Shown in pieces: positions 33,702 through 43,102 of a stretch of 64,000 bases of DNA (positions are counted from its first letter, which is position 1; every line of letters begins with the position of its first letter). A program made the translations under genes and the position numbers. The stretch comes from Thermodesulfobacteriota bacterium (GTDB lineage Bacteria > Desulfobacterota > Desulfobacteria > Desulfobacterales > C00003060), in the NCBI GenBank assembly GCA_034189385.1, contig JAXHVD010000005.1:32001-96000 (forward strand), given 5' to 3'. A model generated the notes under the pieces. That model made no database searches. It had not been told where the DNA came from and saw only the letters and a program-made list of their open reading frames with translations.

Positions 33702-35003
33702 CTAATGACTGTGCTCGTTATTTCCGACAGACAACTTATATGGTGAATCCCAGGCCATGGCCTCCAGACGCTGGATGCGCTCTGCAAGGGGTGGATGGGA
33801 ATAATAGAACCATGCATAAAGGGGGTGCGGATAGAGATTTGAAAGATTGTCACTGGCCAACCGCTTCAGGGCACTGATCAGGTCAGCAGGCTGCTTTAAC
33901 AATTGAGCGGCATAGGAATCAGCCTCTCTTTCAAACCGCCTGGAAATAGCAGCGCCTAAGGGCCCGAAGAATTGGCCCACAGCCTCCCAAAGCACGCCCA
34001 CAAGAAAAAGCCCTACATAGGAAACGCCGTGATCAAACCCAAATGTCTGGTACAGGGTGGGCCATGTCAGCAGCCTTGAAGCTGTGTAGAACAAAAGGAG
34101 TGAGACAAGGCTCACGAAGAACAGGTTTTTATGGAGGTGCCTTTTTTTCCAGTGTCCCACTTCATGGGCAAGAATAGCCACGATCTCATCGTGACTGTGG
34201 GAGGTAAGGAGGGTATCAAAGAGCACAATCCGCTTGGCCTTTCCCAAACCGGTGAAGTAGGCATTGGTGTGCCGACTGCGTTTGCCTGCGTCCATCTTAA
34301 AGACACCTTCGACTGCCAGGCCACCCCGCTCCATGGTCCGTTTTACCTGCTCTTCCAAGGCTTTGTCCTCCAGGGGAAGAAACTTGTTGAACCAAGGGGC
34401 AATGAGGGTCGGATAAAGGACAAGCAACAGGAGTTGAAAGCCGAAGAAGACCAACCAGGCCCAGAGCCACCAGAGGCTTCCGCCATGCTCCACGAGAAGG
34501 AGGACGGAGCCCAGCAAAATGCCGCCAATGATGGCGCCTACCACGACAGCCTTCAAAATGTCCGTAACCCATGTCTTGAACGTTGATGTGTTAAAGCCAT
34601 AGCGTTGTTCAATCACAAAAGTTTTATAGTAATTGAAAGGCAGGGAGAATACCCCTTGGACCACGGCAAGTGTGGCAAAGAAGATCATGGCGGAAGCAAG
34701 GACACCAAAGCCAAAGGTCTCCACCAGTTTGACAAACCAGGGAAGGAGACCGGAGAGAATAACAAAAAGAAAAAGGGCGCTGGTGATCCACGAGGTGAAT
34801 AGATCAAACTGCTCATTGTCAACGGTGTAGTCTGTTATGATCCTCAATTTGTCGCCATCGATGTAGCCCTTGAAAAGATCGGGCACCCTATGGCCATGGT
34901 GTTTAAAATGGCCCATATTCATCTTCGTCAAGACGGACTCAGTCGCCACGCCGGTCAAGAAAAGAACAAGATAGACTATGAGAAGTGGACTTATGGAGAT
35001 CAT
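33702..35003 (-). CDS. M48 family (Ste24-like) membrane zinc metallopeptidase
   Basis: NAYFTG, KRIVLFDTL, HEVGH, EREAD, YSHPPLAERI. Confidence 0.96.
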   Translation of the reverse strand: MISISPLLIVYLVLFLTGVATESVLTKMNMGHFKHHGHRVPDLFKGYIDGDKLRIITDYTVDNEQFDLFTSWITSALFLFVILSGLLPWFVKLVETFGFGVLASAMIFFATLAVVQGVFSLPFNYYKTFVIEQRYGFNTSTFKTWVTDILKAVVVGAIIGGILLGSVLLLVEHGGSLWWLWAWLVFFGFQLLLLVLYPTLIAPWFNKFLPLEDKALEEQVKRTMERGGLAVEGVFKMDAGKRSRHTNAYFTGLGKAKRIVLFDTLLTSHSHDEIVAILAHEVGHWKKRHLHKNLFFVSLVSLLLFYTASRLLTWPTLYQTFGFDHGVSYVGLFLVGVLWEAVGQFFGPLGAAISRRFEREADSYAAQLLKQPADLISALKRLASDNLSNLYPHPLYAWFYYSHPPLAERIQRLEAMAWDSPYKLSVGNNEHSH

Positions 35004-35818
35004 GTTTCGTTATTCCATACCTGTTTTTTACCTGCCCCTTTTCGGTGGCGTTTCGTGGCAGGGCGCTGGCGCAACAGGATATAGGTGGCCCCCGCACCCC
35101 CGTCGCATGCTCTGGCGCTGGTAAAAGCGATGACCCACTTCCGCCATGGGCCCGACGTGAGCCACTCCTTTACCTTGGCCTTTAAGACAGGCTCTTTAGG
35201 GGAAGAAAGGCCGCGGCCGTGAACGATCAGAACCGCCCTTTTTCCTGTGAGCAGGGCTTCCTTGAGAAAGCCCTCAAAGGCTTCGAGGGCCTCCTCCACC
35301 CCAAGGCCATGGAGGTCAAGGTGTTCCTGGATGGAGAAATCACCTTGATGCAATCGTTTAGCGATTTCAGGGCGTACGCCGTATCCCACGCCTTCCATGT
35401 ACTCTGCTGTGTCAGAGACAATAAAGCCCTCCCCATCTCTTATCAGATCCTCCAGCAAGGCTAGGGCTTCGGCTTCTGGATCCTTTTCTTCCATCTTCGG
35501 ACGGGCGGGCTGGAGTTCATGCAGGTGACTGGCCTCATGGACCATGGGTACAACGTCTGCCATGAGCTCTCGAAAAAGCTGTGCTTCCTCATCAGCATTC
35601 AACGGACTGTTATCTTCTTCTTTTGTTACAGGCTGTTCCTTGGGCTCAGAAACCACCGGAAAGGACTTTTCCTCAAGGAGGTCCTTGAGATTCTCAAAGG
35701 GTCTATAGGTGCCAGAGGCCTTAGAAGATTTCATGGATGCTTGTTCCAGCAAGGGGCCTGTGCCCACCGTCAGACTCCCTTCTCGGGTTGGAAGAGAAGG
35801 CCCCTGATGCTTTGACAA
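35000..35818 (-). CDS. Smr/MutS2 C-terminal domain protein
   Basis: LDLHG, LIVHGRG, PVLK, DGGAGATYILL; start may be ATG 35734. Confidence 0.9.
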   Translation of the reverse strand: MSKHQGPSLPTREGSLTVGTGPLLEQASMKSSKASGTYRPFENLKDLLEEKSFPVVSEPKEQPVTKEEDNSPLNADEEAQLFRELMADVVPMVHEASHLHELQPARPKMEEKDPEAEALALLEDLIRDGEGFIVSDTAEYMEGVGYGVRPEIAKRLHQGDFSIQEHLDLHGLGVEEALEAFEGFLKEALLTGKRAVLIVHGRGLSSPKEPVLKAKVKEWLTSGPWRKWVIAFTSARACDGGAGATYILLRQRPATKRHRKGAGKKQVWNNET

Positions 35819-36135: not shown

Positions 36136-36218
36136 CCAGCCGTTGGTTGTCCAGGAAGTGCCGATTTAGAGCGTTCTGGAGTGTGTGATTCCGTCTTGGG
36201 TCAAGCGTTACAGAGCGG

Positions 36219-36314
36219 AAAGCTCAAGGCTCAAAGCTGAAAGGCCAGGAAGTTCTTTTAAGAAAACCCCTTGATTGTTTTGCCCTTGAGCCTTCAGCTT
36301 GTGCCTTTCAGCTT
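36219..36314. repeat. Heptamer-based inverted repeat between convergent genes
   Basis: AAGCTCA-AGGCTCA-AAGCTGA-AAGG followed by complementary units; perfect 12-bp arms AAGCTGAAAGGC (36234-36245) and GCCTTTCAGCTT (36303-36314). Confidence 0.7.
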
Positions 36315-36317
36315 CCT

Positions 36318-37253
36318 CTATCGTGTTTTATAGGCGAGAGACCGGAGTTTCTCGTAGCCAAAAAGCTCGTCTCTCACCATAGGGCTTTCCTTTAGTTCCA
36401 CTTCAAAGGCCTTCTCAAAAGCCCCTATCGCCGTCTCCTTGACCTGATCCCATGGCGGTCTCTTTCCTGTTTCCTGCTCTACAGACGTAAGTGGCTCTAC
36501 CACTTTGTCCCGCACCTCTGGTGGCACCCATACGATGCGCAAAAAGTCTCTGGTATCCAGGGGGGCCAAGAAGGTCAGGGCATTTACTAGCGCTATACCC
36601 TCAACCTCTGAGATGACGAAAGTGGCGATTTTGTCTCCCCGTACCCGAATGCTTCCCCGGTGCTTGTACCAGGCCTCTTTGACACCCAGATCCCTTACGA
36701 TTTCCAGCAAGACATGTCCGATCTTGTTGTAAGCCCCATCAATGTCATCCACGAGGTCCCCTGGGAGGATCAGTTGGATGAAAGCCGTGCTTTGTGGGTG
36801 GCCAAAGACCAGATTGCGCTCCCCAGTCAAGATGACCTGCTCCAAATCGGGTAGCTCCGGTCGAACCTCATTGATCATGGGGGCAAAGTTGGTCAAGGCA
36901 ACGAGGACTTTAGCACCAGAGTCCTTGAGGATGTGGAGGATCTCTCCGCCCTTGTAAAGGGTGTTGAAGGGCACGGCCACGGCCCCAAGTTTCAGCGTAC
37001 CTACCAAGGTGTACACAAACTCAGGGATGTTCGGAAGCATGATCGCCACCCTGTCCCCCTTTGCCACCCCCACCCCTTGGAGTCCGTTGGCCACGCGATT
37101 GGCCCTAAGGTTCAATTCCCCATAGGTGATGGGCTCTCCTTCAAACTGGAGAGCCACCGAGTCGGGACTGGACGAAGCCCATCTTTCAATGGACTGAACC
37201 AATCCTCGATTATTTTCGTTCAATTCTCCGCTCATCCTGATAGTCTTCCGCAA
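36318..37253 (-). CDS. Hybrid: N-terminal part of an acyl-CoA synthetase fused to the C-terminal part of a lipoate-ligase (LplA/BPL) fold
   Basis: TYGELNLRANRVANGL, GDRVAIMLPN, GAVAVPFN but no YTSGTTG; after aa 145, RDLGV...IRVRGDKIA...LTSVEQETGKRPP resembles the LplA C-half. Confidence 0.75.
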   Translation of the reverse strand: MRKTIRMSGELNENNRGLVQSIERWASSSPDSVALQFEGEPITYGELNLRANRVANGLQGVGVAKGDRVAIMLPNIPEFVYTLVGTLKLGAVAVPFNTLYKGGEILHILKDSGAKVLVALTNFAPMINEVRPELPDLEQVILTGERNLVFGHPQSTAFIQLILPGDLVDDIDGAYNKIGHVLLEIVRDLGVKEAWYKHRGSIRVRGDKIATFVISEVEGIALVNALTFLAPLDTRDFLRIVWVPPEVRDKVVEPLTSVEQETGKRPPWDQVKETAIGAFEKAFEVELKESPMVRDELFGYEKLRSLAYKTR

Positions 37254-38637
37254 GCTCCTTCTTAAGAACCTTCCCCGTCACACTCATGGGTAAGACCTTC
37301 CTAAAACAGATCTCATCGGGCACCTTGAAGCTTGACAGGGCCTCCTTGCAGTGGTCCATGACCTCTTTTGCTGTAAGCTCTCCCTTGGCTGTGACAAAGG
37401 CAACGATTTCCTCACGCTCCCCTTTTTTTCTGCCAATGACGGCGGCCTCCTTTATGGCCGGATGGCTCGACAGGACCTCTTCCACCTCCCTGGGGGAAAT
37501 GTTAAAACCTCCCTTAATGATGATTTCTTTCTTACGATCAGTAACATAGAAGTAGCCATCGTCATCCCGATATCCGATATCGCCGGTGAGAAACCAGCCC
37601 TCCCTAAAGGCCTCTTTCGTATCCTCTGGAAGACGGAAGTAGCCCGGCGTGACGCCATCTCCCCTTACTGCAATCTCTCCCTGCTTCCCCGAGGGAAGTC
37701 CTTTGCCGTCTGGGTCAAGGATATCCATTTCGAATCCGGGAAGGGGGAGGCCAATGGAGCCAGCCTTGCAGATGCCATCTGGAGGATTGGCGCAGCATGC
37801 TGCCACGGTTTCCGTCAAGCCATATCCCTCAAGCAGCTGAGCGCCCGAACAGTCCTCAAAGGTTTGGATCATCTCCTTGGGCAATGGGGCCGCCCCTGAC
37901 ACACAGATTCGGATGCTTCTAGGCAGCTGCACCTTTTTTCGTTCCAGGAGGGTGAGAAGATGGACATACATAGTGGGAATGGCGACCATGAGGGTGGGAT
38001 GATGATCCATAATAGTCTTCAGCAAGTTGGCGGGACTATACTGTGGAACAAGGATCACAGTGCCCCCGTGAATCAGACCCAGATGGAGCACATTTGAAAG
38101 GCCGAAAACATGAAAAAAAGGCAACACGCCGATCACCTTATCCTTGGGCGTGCAATCGAGCACATGTTCCGTAGACTTGCCTTCGGAAACAAAATTCTTG
38201 TGGGTCAACTGCACCCCCTTGGGCCGACCCGTTGTACCGGAAGTGTATAGGATGCAGGCCAGATCTTCCGGCTCAGTGGCAACGGAGACGAATGCGTCGT
38301 CTTCCTGTAACATCATTTCTTCAAAGTTGATGGTTTCTGCCGGCCGCAAGCTGGCTCTGCCAGACCTGGGTTGAAAGGCCACGTCCACGTCGTGCTCTGA
38401 TGCGGCCTGGAAATCCACTGCTACGTCCGCCCCTGCCAATATCCCTTTCTTAGAGAGGCCCTGAATGACAAGGGTGCCCCCTGAAGCCATGGATGAAAGG
38501 AGGTAGCGTCCGGCGATCTGGCCCTCTACAACAGCGCCTGGCAAGGCCATCACATCTGCTATGTCAGCTTGCGGCTTAAAGATAAGGCGCCACTGCTCTT
38601 TACGCTTTTTTCGAGAGAAAATCTTCCACTTCATCAA
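37210..38637 (-). CDS. Hybrid: N-terminal part of a lipoate-ligase fold fused to the catalytic C-terminal two-thirds of an acyl-CoA synthetase
   Basis: WRLI...MAL N-terminus; then LYTSGTTGRPKG, EGYGLTE, TGDIG, DRKKE, KVPD, GKVLK. Confidence 0.8.
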   Translation of the reverse strand: MMKWKIFSRKKRKEQWRLIFKPQADIADVMALPGAVVEGQIAGRYLLSSMASGGTLVIQGLSKKGILAGADVAVDFQAASEHDVDVAFQPRSGRASLRPAETINFEEMMLQEDDAFVSVATEPEDLACILYTSGTTGRPKGVQLTHKNFVSEGKSTEHVLDCTPKDKVIGVLPFFHVFGLSNVLHLGLIHGGTVILVPQYSPANLLKTIMDHHPTLMVAIPTMYVHLLTLLERKKVQLPRSIRICVSGAAPLPKEMIQTFEDCSGAQLLEGYGLTETVAACCANPPDGICKAGSIGLPLPGFEMDILDPDGKGLPSGKQGEIAVRGDGVTPGYFRLPEDTKEAFREGWFLTGDIGYRDDDGYFYVTDRKKEIIIKGGFNISPREVEEVLSSHPAIKEAAVIGRKKGEREEIVAFVTAKGELTAKEVMDHCKEALSSFKVPDEICFRKVLPMSVTGKVLKKELAEDYQDERRIERK

Positions 38638-40102
38638 AAAACACCCGAATCACTTTTTCGCTGGGCCGGCTGGTGAGCAGGCTGATAACCACAAAGAGTA
38701 TGAGATTCACCAAAATGGTCGGAATGGCAGGCGGCAGGCCAAGCAGCAGCGGCTTGTGGATGAACCCTGCGACCAGATAGACAGATCCCGCAACCGTGCC
38801 TGCTAATGCCCCCTTCTTGGTGGCCCTTTTCCAGAGTATCCCCCCGACGAGAGCTGGCCCCCACTGCGCAAAACCAGGTATGGCAAGGTCGAGCAAGTAA
38901 CGGGCCAGTTCAACAGGGTACCAGAAGGCAATGCCCATGCTCATGAGGAGAATGGCAATGACCGACAGCTTCGTCGTTCTTATAAGGAACTGGTCCCTAC
39001 CCCTTGGAACGAAGACACCGTGGATAATGTCCCGGGCCACGATGATGCTGGCCGTCATGAGCTGGACTGCAGCCGTGGATATGGCTGCTGCAATGACTCC
39101 CATAAGCACAAAGGTTGAAAACCAGGGAGGCAGATAAGAGGTGACAATGGTCTGTACGATATTGTCTGCGGCCTTGCCTGACACCGGTGGCACGAGACTG
39201 CCTGGCATATGACTGATGGCTGGGGCTACCACAGCGCCCCAGATAAAAGGGATGGTGTAAAAGAGCATGCCTGCCACAATGAGGGCCAGGGCTGGCATCC
39301 ACTTGAATATGGTTTTGTCCTGGGCCGTCATGGTGCTGACAACGATGTGGGGCCAGGTAAAAGCCAATATTCCAAGCATGAACACAATACAGGTTACGTG
39401 GGGGAGGAATTTTTCCTGGGGGCCTGGTGTGAAGAGAAGGGCAGGTTGTTTTGCCTGAAGAATGGACACGGCTTCTGATAGCCCTCCAGGAAAGACCTTG
39501 ACGACGACAAAGACCAGAGATCCGAGAAAGGCAAGGGTGTAGAGGAGGCCAAGAATCACATTGACCCACGCCGTGATGCGCATGCCGCCCAGCAAAACGA
39601 TGAGAATGAGAAGCAAGGAGATATAGAGAATGCCCACAAAAGGAGGAAAGCCCAGCAGGGCTTTCAGTCCAAGGCCTACGCCCAGAGACTGATCAGCGAT
39701 GTAGGGCACAACAGAACCAAGGAGCACCAGGGATAGAAGAAGTCTTAAGGCAGGAGATTCGTACCTGGCGGAAAGGGCCTCAATGGGGGATAGAAACCGA
39801 TTTAATCGGCAAACGGCCCAAAGGCGCGGGCCGATAAACATGTATAAAACGACGAACCCTGCCACGCAGCCCCATATAAAATAGACGAACCCAGGCCCAT
39901 GGCGATAGAGGATGCTGGGATAGGCATAGAAGGTCCACACACTGGATATGGCAAAGAGGGCAAAGAAGAACATGACTGCAATGCCGATACCCCTGCCCGC
40001 GAGCATGTAGTCTTCTGCGGTCTTGGCCGAGACCTTGTATCCATAAACGGCCAAGAGCAAGACCAGCAATCCAAAGGCAGCCAAAATGAAGACCGTCATC
40101 AT
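38600..40102 (-). CDS. Sodium:solute symporter family protein
   Basis: EDYMLAGRGIG, GGMR, AAAIST, about 13 TM helices. Confidence 0.93.
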   Translation of the reverse strand: MMTVFILAAFGLLVLLLAVYGYKVSAKTAEDYMLAGRGIGIAVMFFFALFAISSVWTFYAYPSILYRHGPGFVYFIWGCVAGFVVLYMFIGPRLWAVCRLNRFLSPIEALSARYESPALRLLLSLVLLGSVVPYIADQSLGVGLGLKALLGFPPFVGILYISLLLILIVLLGGMRITAWVNVILGLLYTLAFLGSLVFVVVKVFPGGLSEAVSILQAKQPALLFTPGPQEKFLPHVTCIVFMLGILAFTWPHIVVSTMTAQDKTIFKWMPALALIVAGMLFYTIPFIWGAVVAPAISHMPGSLVPPVSGKAADNIVQTIVTSYLPPWFSTFVLMGVIAAAISTAAVQLMTASIIVARDIIHGVFVPRGRDQFLIRTTKLSVIAILLMSMGIAFWYPVELARYLLDLAIPGFAQWGPALVGGILWKRATKKGALAGTVAGSVYLVAGFIHKPLLLGLPPAIPTILVNLILFVVISLLTSRPSEKVIRVFFDEVEDFLSKKA

Positions 40103-40141: not shown

Positions 40142-40354
40142 TCAACGAAAGGGCCAATACTTAAAGAAATAAACCAGATATGCACAAAGCCAAATAAGCA
40201 GGAAAACGATGCCCGCTGCAAATGGCAGGCTAATCCACCCCATGACAATGATTGGTTTGGAGAACAAGGGGGTGACTGCTAAAAGCCCTGCGACATCCAG
40301 GAATAGAACCAGCAGGAAGATCCGACCTGCCCGGTGTGAAAAGGCCTCTCTCAC
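40142..40354 (-). CDS. Small two-helix membrane protein, likely symporter accessory subunit
   Basis: GTG start after GGAGG; two hydrophobic helices; directly upstream of the symporter gene. Confidence 0.7.
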   Translation of the reverse strand: MREAFSHRAGRIFLLVLFLDVAGLLAVTPLFSKPIIVMGWISLPFAAGIVFLLIWLCAYLVYFFKYWPFR

Positions 40355-41797: not shown

Positions 41798-43102
41798 TTA
41801 GGGTCCAAATTTCTCTCTTGGGGGGTTGAAATATCCGAATTTCAGCGTGGGAAAAGCCTTTCGCACCCTTTCCATGACGGTGTGCATCCCCATCAGTTGT
41901 GCTTCGGGGCTACCGTCGCCCATAATTTGCCAGTAGCGCACCGGGTCAAAATTCAGGTTCCGCCATTGGATCATCTGGACGGGATGGTTATCCAGAAAAG
42001 ACAGAAAAGCGGCCATTTCCTCCTTGGAATCGGTGAACCCAGGCAGGTTCAGATAGTTCATGGAAACAAATTTGCCTTTATGTCCGGCCAAATCGATGCT
42101 TGCAACCACATCCTCGAAGCTGTAGCCTTTTGGTCGGAAATAGGCTTCATAGAACCGTTTCCTGACGCTGTTCATGCTTACCCGAATGGCGTCTAGGCCT
42201 GCCTCAAAGAGTCTCTCCAGCACAGACGGAAGGCTGGCATTGGTATTCATATTGATGGTACCCCGTTGAGTGGCCTGTCGAATAAGCCGAATGGCGGGTT
42301 CAATCACCTTTGCGGCCAGTAGAGGCTCCCCCTCACATCCTTGACCGAAACTGACCACAGGTCTTTTGGTATGGCTGATATGATGCATGGCAATCTGTGC
42401 AATCTCGTCCGGCGTAGGAGTGAAATCAATCCGCTTTTGGGTACTTGGAATGTCGCTCTCTCGCTGCAGGGAAAGACACCCGTGACATTTGGCATTGCAT
42501 TTCACCGACGTGGGTAGAGGGCCTTCACAGCGTTCCAGAAAGAAGTTCTTGGCTGCGGGACAGCCGTAAGTGAGGGCGCAGGTCTCAAGATGGGCCCTCA
42601 GTCGATTTGAAGGCATGGTACGACGAAGGGAGGCGATTCCCTCGACGATCTTGTCATGGGGCATAAGCCGCAGGTCCTGGCGTCTTTCCCGGTCCACCCG
42701 AATGGCTGCCACTCGAAATCTTCCCTTAAGCCAGCCAATAGCACCGTAAGAAAAAAGGGGGAGAGGGGCGGGATCGGGCTGCTCTGCATAGGCGCTTACA
42801 AGAGAGATAGTGTAGCCCGGGGCGTTAAAGGCTGCTACGGGATAGACCGGCTCGCCTGGAGCATGGGGATTATCAGTGAGGACTTCGAATGTCTTGGCTG
42901 CCATGTTATAGACAATAGGCCTTCTATCCGGCAGGAACAGGTGTTCGCCTCCAAAGGGCATGTTAATAGTGTCCATCTCCGTAAGGGGAACCAATGTGGA
43001 ACCAGCCATCCCTACGGCAGCGTAGTGATCGAGATCAAAGAATTCTCCTTCCCTGTTTGCTACAAGGGCCTTTATGAACTGTCTCCGTTGTCTAGACATC
43101 AC
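41798..43102 (-). CDS. Radical SAM protein, function unknown
   Basis: CNAKCHGC, SFGQGCEGEPL, NMNTNAS. Confidence 0.9.
   Translation of the reverse strand: MMSRQRRQFIKALVANREGEFFDLDHYAAVGMAGSTLVPLTEMDTINMPFGGEHLFLPDRRPIVYNMAAKTFEVLTDNPHAPGEPVYPVAAFNAPGYTISLVSAYAEQPDPAPLPLFSYGAIGWLKGRFRVAAIRVDRERRQDLRLMPHDKIVEGIASLRRTMPSNRLRAHLETCALTYGCPAAKNFFLERCEGPLPTSVKCNAKCHGCLSLQRESDIPSTQKRIDFTPTPDEIAQIAMHHISHTKRPVVSFGQGCEGEPLLAAKVIEPAIRLIRQATQRGTINMNTNASLPSVLERLFEAGLDAIRVSMNSVRKRFYEAYFRPKGYSFEDVVASIDLAGHKGKFVSMNYLNLPGFTDSKEEMAAFLSFLDNHPVQMIQWRNLNFDPVRYWQIMGDGSPEAQLMGMHTVMERVRKAFPTLKFGYFNPPREKFGP

Follow-up and report, generated by a model that had tools for sequence, protein, structure and literature searches.

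Two overlapping genes with exchanged halves

In the window, by which we mean the whole 64,000-nucleotide stretch of DNA analysed here, four genes lie in a row on the minus strand: an ORF encoding a 70-aa hydrophobic membrane protein (40142..40354), a sodium:solute symporter gene (38600..40102; PF00474), gene A and gene B. Gene A runs from 38637 (TTG) or 38634 (ATG, 474 aa) to 37210 and gene B from 37253 (TTG) or 37235 (ATG, 305 aa) to 36318. Homologues favoured the ATG starts of both A (38634) and B (37235), which give an A/B overlap of 26 nt, and the symporter gene overlaps the start of A by 35 nt. Residues of A and B are numbered from the TTG starts unless marked ATG. An earlier note on this DNA had described the two frames as intact and overlapping, and both ORFs are open over these coordinates; the conserved membrane protein gene at 40354-40142, which is recognizable as an ORF with homologues, had been overlooked. 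A promoter and terminator scan of the locus gave results at chance level. Directly 3' of the B stop lies a long imperfect hairpin (36200-36325, minus strand; z -1.79) that is present in a single copy in the genome. On the same strand, the A/B pair is followed in 10 loci by an Smr-domain gene (35000-35818) and preceded in 5 by a radical-SAM gene without a named family (41798-43102), each in close relatives only, and these neighbours therefore probably reflect local synteny.

The two genes share one acyl-CoA synthetase. Residues 99-475 of A (37210..38343, minus strand) extend from the a2-a3 loop through the C-terminal subdomain, with residues 100-334 corresponding to positions 136-384 of the AMP-binding model PF00501 and residues 384-456 to the C-terminal subdomain PF13193. 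The N-terminal subdomain, with motifs a1-a2, is encoded by about 140 aa of B from the ATG at 37235 (36816..37235, minus strand), where residues 23-142 correspond to PF00501 positions 2-127. The AMP-binding fold (PF00501 and PF13193) is complete, but only across both chains, and the break between PF00501 positions 127 and 136 falls just before the P-loop, at the a2-a3 junction. In a fold search, a model of B 1-139 aligned with acyl-CoA synthetases at Z 14-15 (up to 15.2). All folds listed by Foldseek for B were synthetase-type, and the list of fold matches to whole A was taken up by synthetases and does not bear on its N-terminal piece. Among 39 full A/B pairs, the P-loop was found in 39, a4 in 33, a5 in 39, a7 in 37, a8 in 37 and the a10 lysine in 34, counted with patterns that we take to define these motifs. 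The synthetase motifs are intact across both chains, those from a3 to a10 being carried by A. The synthetase was 40-47% identical to intact relatives within the phylum and about equally close to several CoA-ligase families.

The C-terminal piece of B (residues 147-311; 36318..36815, minus strand) is the C-half of an LplA-type catalytic domain, with its lysine present and without an LplB domain. Its residues 159-279 matched LplA-B_cat (PF21948) positions 77-199 at 26.5 bits, against a cut-off of 27. A profile of this piece, searched against 1.84 billion representatives, gave 92 matches, including intact proteins of 350-410 aa that were aligned from around residue 82. PF21948 was present in all 11 full-length matches scanned, and the named intact relatives were lipoate-protein ligases of Jordarchaeia/Freyarchaeota, Sulfolobus and Bathyarchaeota. 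The model of B 139-282 fitted LipB (2qht) with a Z of 12.8 and an rmsd of 2.3 over 125 residues, and the Z values for LipB and biotin ligases were 12.8-13.0. A biotin-ligase origin of the GRG loop was weighed, but the closest relatives by sequence are lipoate ligases, though the B fold fits BirA and LipB equally.

The N-terminal piece of A (residues 13-95; 38353..38601, minus strand) is the N-half of the same type of domain, up to a remodelled lipoate-binding loop (P-R-S/G-G-R). Queried alone, it gave no meaningful match in Pfam, PDB sequences or Atlas. When aligned by HHalign to a profile of 33 intact Lpl(AB) ligases, which had been picked via B only, it matched residues 3-76 with a probability of 97.6% and an E-value of 3e-12 (residues 3-79 of P0214, the best intact match of the C-half), and the B piece matched residues 82-245 with 99.9%. 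On an intact Lpl(AB) the two halves therefore abut end to end without overlap, 3-79 and then 82-245. All 39 N-pieces scored 9-28 bits on the intact-ligase profile, against 7.6 for the best of 975 shuffles and at most 1 for reversed pieces. The reciprocal split and the LplA identity of both odd pieces, proposed in the earlier note, are thus upheld, as HHalign ties both pieces to one intact Lpl(AB) clade; the motif LGV..I.V.G.KI given there lies in the right region of B. In trees of the LplA halves, built from 19 of the 39 split loci and 25 intact ligases with a midpoint root only, each split half formed one group (100/100 and 99/94) with matching subgroups, and P0214 came out as the sister of the N-halves, with a support of 98/92 from a bootstrap that had not fully converged. 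The sequences are consistent with one origin of the split pair. In databases both genes carry the name 'AMP-binding protein' or 'acyl-CoA synthetase', which has kept the LplA fold out of sight.

Several further forms of the ligase were seen along the way. LplA-like matches lie in frames of 520-560 aa in many genomes of the phylum (L053-L063, L065-L067, L069), and P0251, of this size class, consists of LplA, LplB and DUF116. A locus with an intact ligase relative (L084, 174-1769, plus strand) encodes a 531-aa protein in which an LplA/B catalytic domain is fused to a radical-SAM domain; genes for 2-oxoacid dehydrogenase E1 follow downstream. In one genome with the split pair, several lplA- and gcvH-like matches lie fragmented on a single contig (G415:C192, 5194-15593), which may be a sequencing error.

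Recurrence and conservation of the split pair

We found 152 relatives of B among 367 candidates, mostly of 305 aa, and 80 relatives of the A N-piece among 221 candidates. The same split was present in other genomes, where the earlier note had suggested looking for it: on GTDB contigs, 31 of 34 loci have A immediately before B (2 of them partial), and the other three are truncated where the contig ends or at an N gap. In a sample of 401 genomes of the host phylum, B was detected in 11 (E < 1e-50), with A upstream in 9 of the 10 others and the remaining contig too short. A and B were adjacent in all 39 full loci, a set that includes close relatives and whose members are not independent, and in each of these loci the synthetase was encoded by two ORFs, never on a single polypeptide. 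The split pair was found in Deltaproteobacteria/Desulfobacterales, Spirochaetota, Planctomycetia, Latescibacterota and Clostridiales, with one member in TA06; Alkalispirochaeta alkalica DSM 8900 (L021) is among the carriers. A fused A+B form was seen neither among 820 longer candidates, which is weak evidence, nor near 780 aa among the 92 representative matches. The frame offset from A to B differs among loci (31, 5, 3), so that no fixed frameshift joins the two genes, and synthesis of one chain via frameshift or read-through was ruled out on this basis.

Contigs from a second study span both junctions and the A/B overlap. The median dN/dS over 69 unsaturated pairs was 0.114 for the N-half of LplA, 0.155 for the C-part of the synthetase, 0.136 for its N-part and 0.127 for the C-half of LplA, and all four pieces are under purifying selection. 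Misassembly or a pseudogene was ruled out by the recurrence across loci, the bridging contigs of the second study and these dN/dS values. The same values bear on a frozen accident, in which the synthetase could no longer do without either gene after a crossover, while the LplA domain persisted without a ligand, only as a folding scaffold or as a surface on which the symporter docks. Such an entanglement would by itself account for co-inheritance and would agree with the loss of the canonical LplA catalytic features, but the dN/dS of the LplA halves (0.11, 0.13) is as low as that of the synthetase halves (0.14, 0.16), the charged residues of the LplA pocket are invariant at identities down to 30%, and linker lengths are nearly fixed among split pairs; we regard it as quite improbable.

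The earlier note had also linked A and B to the sodium:solute symporter, and this link recurred: the same symporter family was directly upstream in 32 of the 39 loci (30 full, 2 cut by a contig end). The other seven comprised three without upstream sequence, one with an ActP/MctC-like symporter and three with unrelated genes, so that no symporter stood beside the pair in 3 of the 36 loci with upstream sequence (L014, L076, L079). In the ActP/MctC-like case (L077, 11187-13079, minus strand), the pair lies behind a monocarboxylate symporter with an internal insertion, whose match was below the family cut-off. By tblastn, 29 of the other 38 split loci have a homologue of the 70-aa membrane gene, as do 2 symporter/synthetase loci without the split; the protein, which is likely the small partner of the symporter, had no NCBIfam match. 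YjcH, from the acs-yjcH-actP operon, is also a small membrane protein.

Symporter relatives also occur without the split pair. The three closest among the 401 genomes (39-43% identity) each adjoin an acyl-CoA synthetase gene, with no LplA, and among five more distant ones a single symporter has a synthetase at a distance of about 4 kb. Synthetases that adjoin non-split symporters scored 260-275 bits to the split one, against 357-423 for other intact relatives; they are not its nearest intact relatives and so do not show that it descends from the operon's own synthetase. An order with lplA beside acs was not seen in the five loci with intact ligases from the phylum or, from its ORFs, in L088 (L087 is outside this set). 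In L113 (9783-11349, minus strand), an acyl-CoA synthetase beside a related symporter is found in two overlapping ORFs of 200 and 353 aa without LplA parts, which may be a frameshift or an assembly error.

The predicted heterodimer and the remodelled LplA site

A and B are predicted to pair as a heterodimer, and only in this pairing would both folds be complete. The complex prediction for A+B scored 0.82, compared with 0.00 for the best of three controls, with at least 92% contact agreement among runs and a partner pLDDT of at least 86. Of 157 solved pairs, 116 reached the mark used for this score, as did 2 of 215 mismatched ones; these figures apply here only approximately, and halves of a split fold can pass such a test by their likeness to solved single-chain structures, so the score supports the dimer without showing it. 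The best predicted contacts (ATG numbering) were A54-57/B152-156 in the LplA sheet and A126-128/B86-88 and A192-194/B27-30 in the synthetase, and a further strand contact was predicted at A102-104/B135. The heterodimer put forward in the earlier note is thus borne out as a prediction, in which the contacts pair strands of both folds.

We then compared the LplA site of the 39 split pairs with that of the 33 intact ligases, mapping positions by profile alignments and not by coordinates. In the accessible text on a Mycoplasma (Mhp) ligase, the lipoate-binding loop is placed at residues 72-83, T75 and A143 line the lipoyl tunnel, and both adenylation and transfer are said to require K138 (PMC7186572). 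The chain break of the split pair falls inside this loop (RRxxGGGA(I/V)Y), after the glycines, and leaves it discontinuous. The first Arg of the RR..GGG loop was found in 5/39 split pairs versus 33/33 intact ligases and the second in 3/39 versus 32/33; the last Gly was replaced by Arg in 37/39 split pairs, and the position of T75 was Arg in 35/39. The lysine equivalent to K138, Lys202 of B in ATG numbering, was present in 39/39 split and 33/33 intact sequences, and the Gly that follows it in 8/39 versus 32/33. At the tunnel position of A143, 35/39 split pairs had V/L/Y, in contrast to G/A/S in 32/33 intact ligases. The Asp of the (N/G)D motif before the lysine strand, which we take to serve Mg/ATP binding, was found in 0/39 versus 33/33.

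Eight residues of B are invariant among the split pairs (W195, Y196, G200, R203, E246, D249, K250, E253), and a ring of new invariant or near-invariant residues comprises W195, Y196, K197, H198, G200 and R203 of B and R91 and R94 of A (TTG numbering). No conserved Cys was found in either LplA half (at most 10/39 in any column); the LipB, LipM and LipL octanoyl- and amidotransferases use a conserved catalytic cysteine. The LplB domain is absent from B, which ends at the position of donor residue 245, and a search of the host genome, which is 90% complete, gave no PF10437; in the part of the source available, activity without LplB is reported for one ligase (PMC7186572). Judged from these alignments, the LplA site is remodelled, with the lysine kept and the RR..GGG loop, the Asp and LplB lost. 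The kept lysine and the strong conservation would fit a catalytic LplA half equally well.

Such a half could belong to a new two-step ligase, in which acyl-AMP or acyl-CoA would donate its acyl group to a new amine acceptor outside lipoylation, either a lysine of a protein or a small molecule. The ring of new residues around the kept lysine speaks for this idea, as does the finding that divergences of the two LplA halves correlated with each other (Spearman 0.80) more strongly than with those of their covalent neighbours (0.60, 0.55), in pairs that are not independent. Against it, no acceptor gene recurs in the neighbourhoods, the Cys of a LipB/LipM/LipL-type relay is missing, and the thioester-forming motif a8 is kept, so that the synthetase needs no second enzyme. 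We consider a new ligase doubtful.

Function and relation to known systems

The earlier note had suggested that a carboxylic acid such as lipoate or octanoate is imported, activated and transferred. In this salvage route, the synthetase would take on the lost role of LplB and make lipoyl- or octanoyl-AMP, and the LplA half would pass the acyl group to a lysine of GcvH or E2. The invariant counterpart of K138 would suit such a step, and transfer from lipoyl-AMP is described as still possible for LplA without LplB in the accessible text (PMC7186572). A route from an acyl-CoA synthetase to a half-ligase has been proposed for ACSM1 and LIPT1 (PMC5828627), but this mammalian model is rejected in later reviews, as far as their available parts go (PMC7253636, PMC13692748). 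Intact ligase relatives adjoin gcvH and radical-SAM genes in three of the five loci examined (L082, L084, L085). A GcvH-like gene exceeded the cut-off in 42 of 43 genomes carrying the pair, but this co-occurrence says little because 167 of 201 genomes of the phylum (83%) have one anyway. Carriers mostly have lipoylation genes of their own, with lipA in 34/43 and another full-length LplA/LipB-family gene in 36/43, and the host has gcvH-gcvP-lipB-lipA on another contig. No lipoylation gene or lipoyl acceptor was seen as a recurring neighbour of the pair in the loci examined. Together with the cut and remodelled lipoate-binding loop, the loss of the RR arginines, the invariant Asp and the small tunnel residues in favour of bulkier ones, and the lack of a conserved Cys and of LplB, these observations go against lipoate or octanoate transfer as first worded; the lipoate-transfer reading is only partly supported, and we judge the two-step salvage unlikely.

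We favour, tentatively and with slightly less than even confidence, an import-and-activate unit whose LplA domain became a remodelled ligand-binding module and not a lipoate ligase. By analogy with acs-yjcH-actP, the symporter would bring in a carboxylic acid, which the A+B dimer would convert via acyl-AMP to acyl-CoA. The LplA pocket, with its kept lysine and gained conserved Arg/Lys/His, may bind an anionic ligand of the adenylate or CoA type, and this binding could tune the synthetase because the a2-a3 loop of the synthetase is the very place into which the LplA ligand loop is spliced. The A/B gene order is that of a circularly permuted acs inserted into lplA, and it could have arisen by one crossover between circular acs-bearing DNA and lplA, giving the order LplA-N/ACS-C and then ACS-N/LplA-C. 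In a broader form, which we hold possible with more reserve, two unrelated folds have been cut and cross-wired in a natural, widespread two-chain enzyme with its own symporter, in which an LplA-derived site with a new ligand either receives the activated acyl group from the synthetase or acts as a switch on the synthetase, so that one crossover would have created a new acyl-transfer or allosteric system. The pair would then be a clear natural case of two enzymes made interdependent by one recombination event, then kept and spread across phyla; it would offer an LplA fold with a new conserved pocket and make the origin of obligate complexes and of new allostery directly testable with two small soluble proteins.

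In the literature that we searched, which covered titles and the starts of abstracts with most subscription journals outside, no description of this split arrangement was found. The long- and medium-chain acyl-CoA synthetases of the ANL superfamily (FadD-like; PRK06187; PDB 6qjz, 4fuq, 8wev, 3r44) have the same fold and the same motifs a1-a10 that are here spread over A and B, which differ from them by the a2/a3 cut onto two chains, the reversed gene order and the fusion of each half to a half of another fold. The catalytic-domain fold and the conserved lysine are shared with Lpl(AB), bipartite LplAB, circularly permuted Lpl(BA) and half-ligases, as these are presented in the accessible parts of PMC10332631, PMC7186572 and PMC7253636. 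The known splits and permutations of ligases lie between LplA and LplB in the text available (PMC10332631), whereas the A/B cut lies inside the catalytic domain, in the lipoate-binding loop; compared with known Lpl(AB), the split pair also lacks LplB and has altered RR..GGG and N/G-D motifs.

Interrupted adenylation domains of NRPSs are reported with junctions at a2-a3, a6-a7 or a8-a9, and those of the a2-a3 type, e.g. TioN, carry a foreign domain at the same loop as A/B (PMC8341866, accessible part). In the TioN type, a whole methyltransferase is placed inside one chain (PMC8341866), whereas in A/B the partner domain is itself divided, its pieces lying next to the synthetase parts on two chains, with the topology of a permuted synthetase inside LplA and with no carrier or NRPS genes. 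The acs-yjcH-actP acetate operon, as outlined in the available text (PMC6498577), groups an acyl-CoA synthetase gene with that of a sodium:solute symporter and one additional small gene, as here, but our locus has another symporter subfamily and, in place of an acetyl-CoA synthetase, a FadD-like enzyme that is divided and interlocked with LplA. ACSM1 and LIPT1 likewise pair an acyl-CoA synthetase with an LplA-family protein described as unable to adenylate (PMC5828627), yet they are separate intact proteins whose physiological role is disputed in the accessible parts of later reviews (PMC7253636, PMC13692748), whereas A and B are interlocked halves. In sum, the architecture is new, its parts belong to known families, and its chemistry may prove ordinary.
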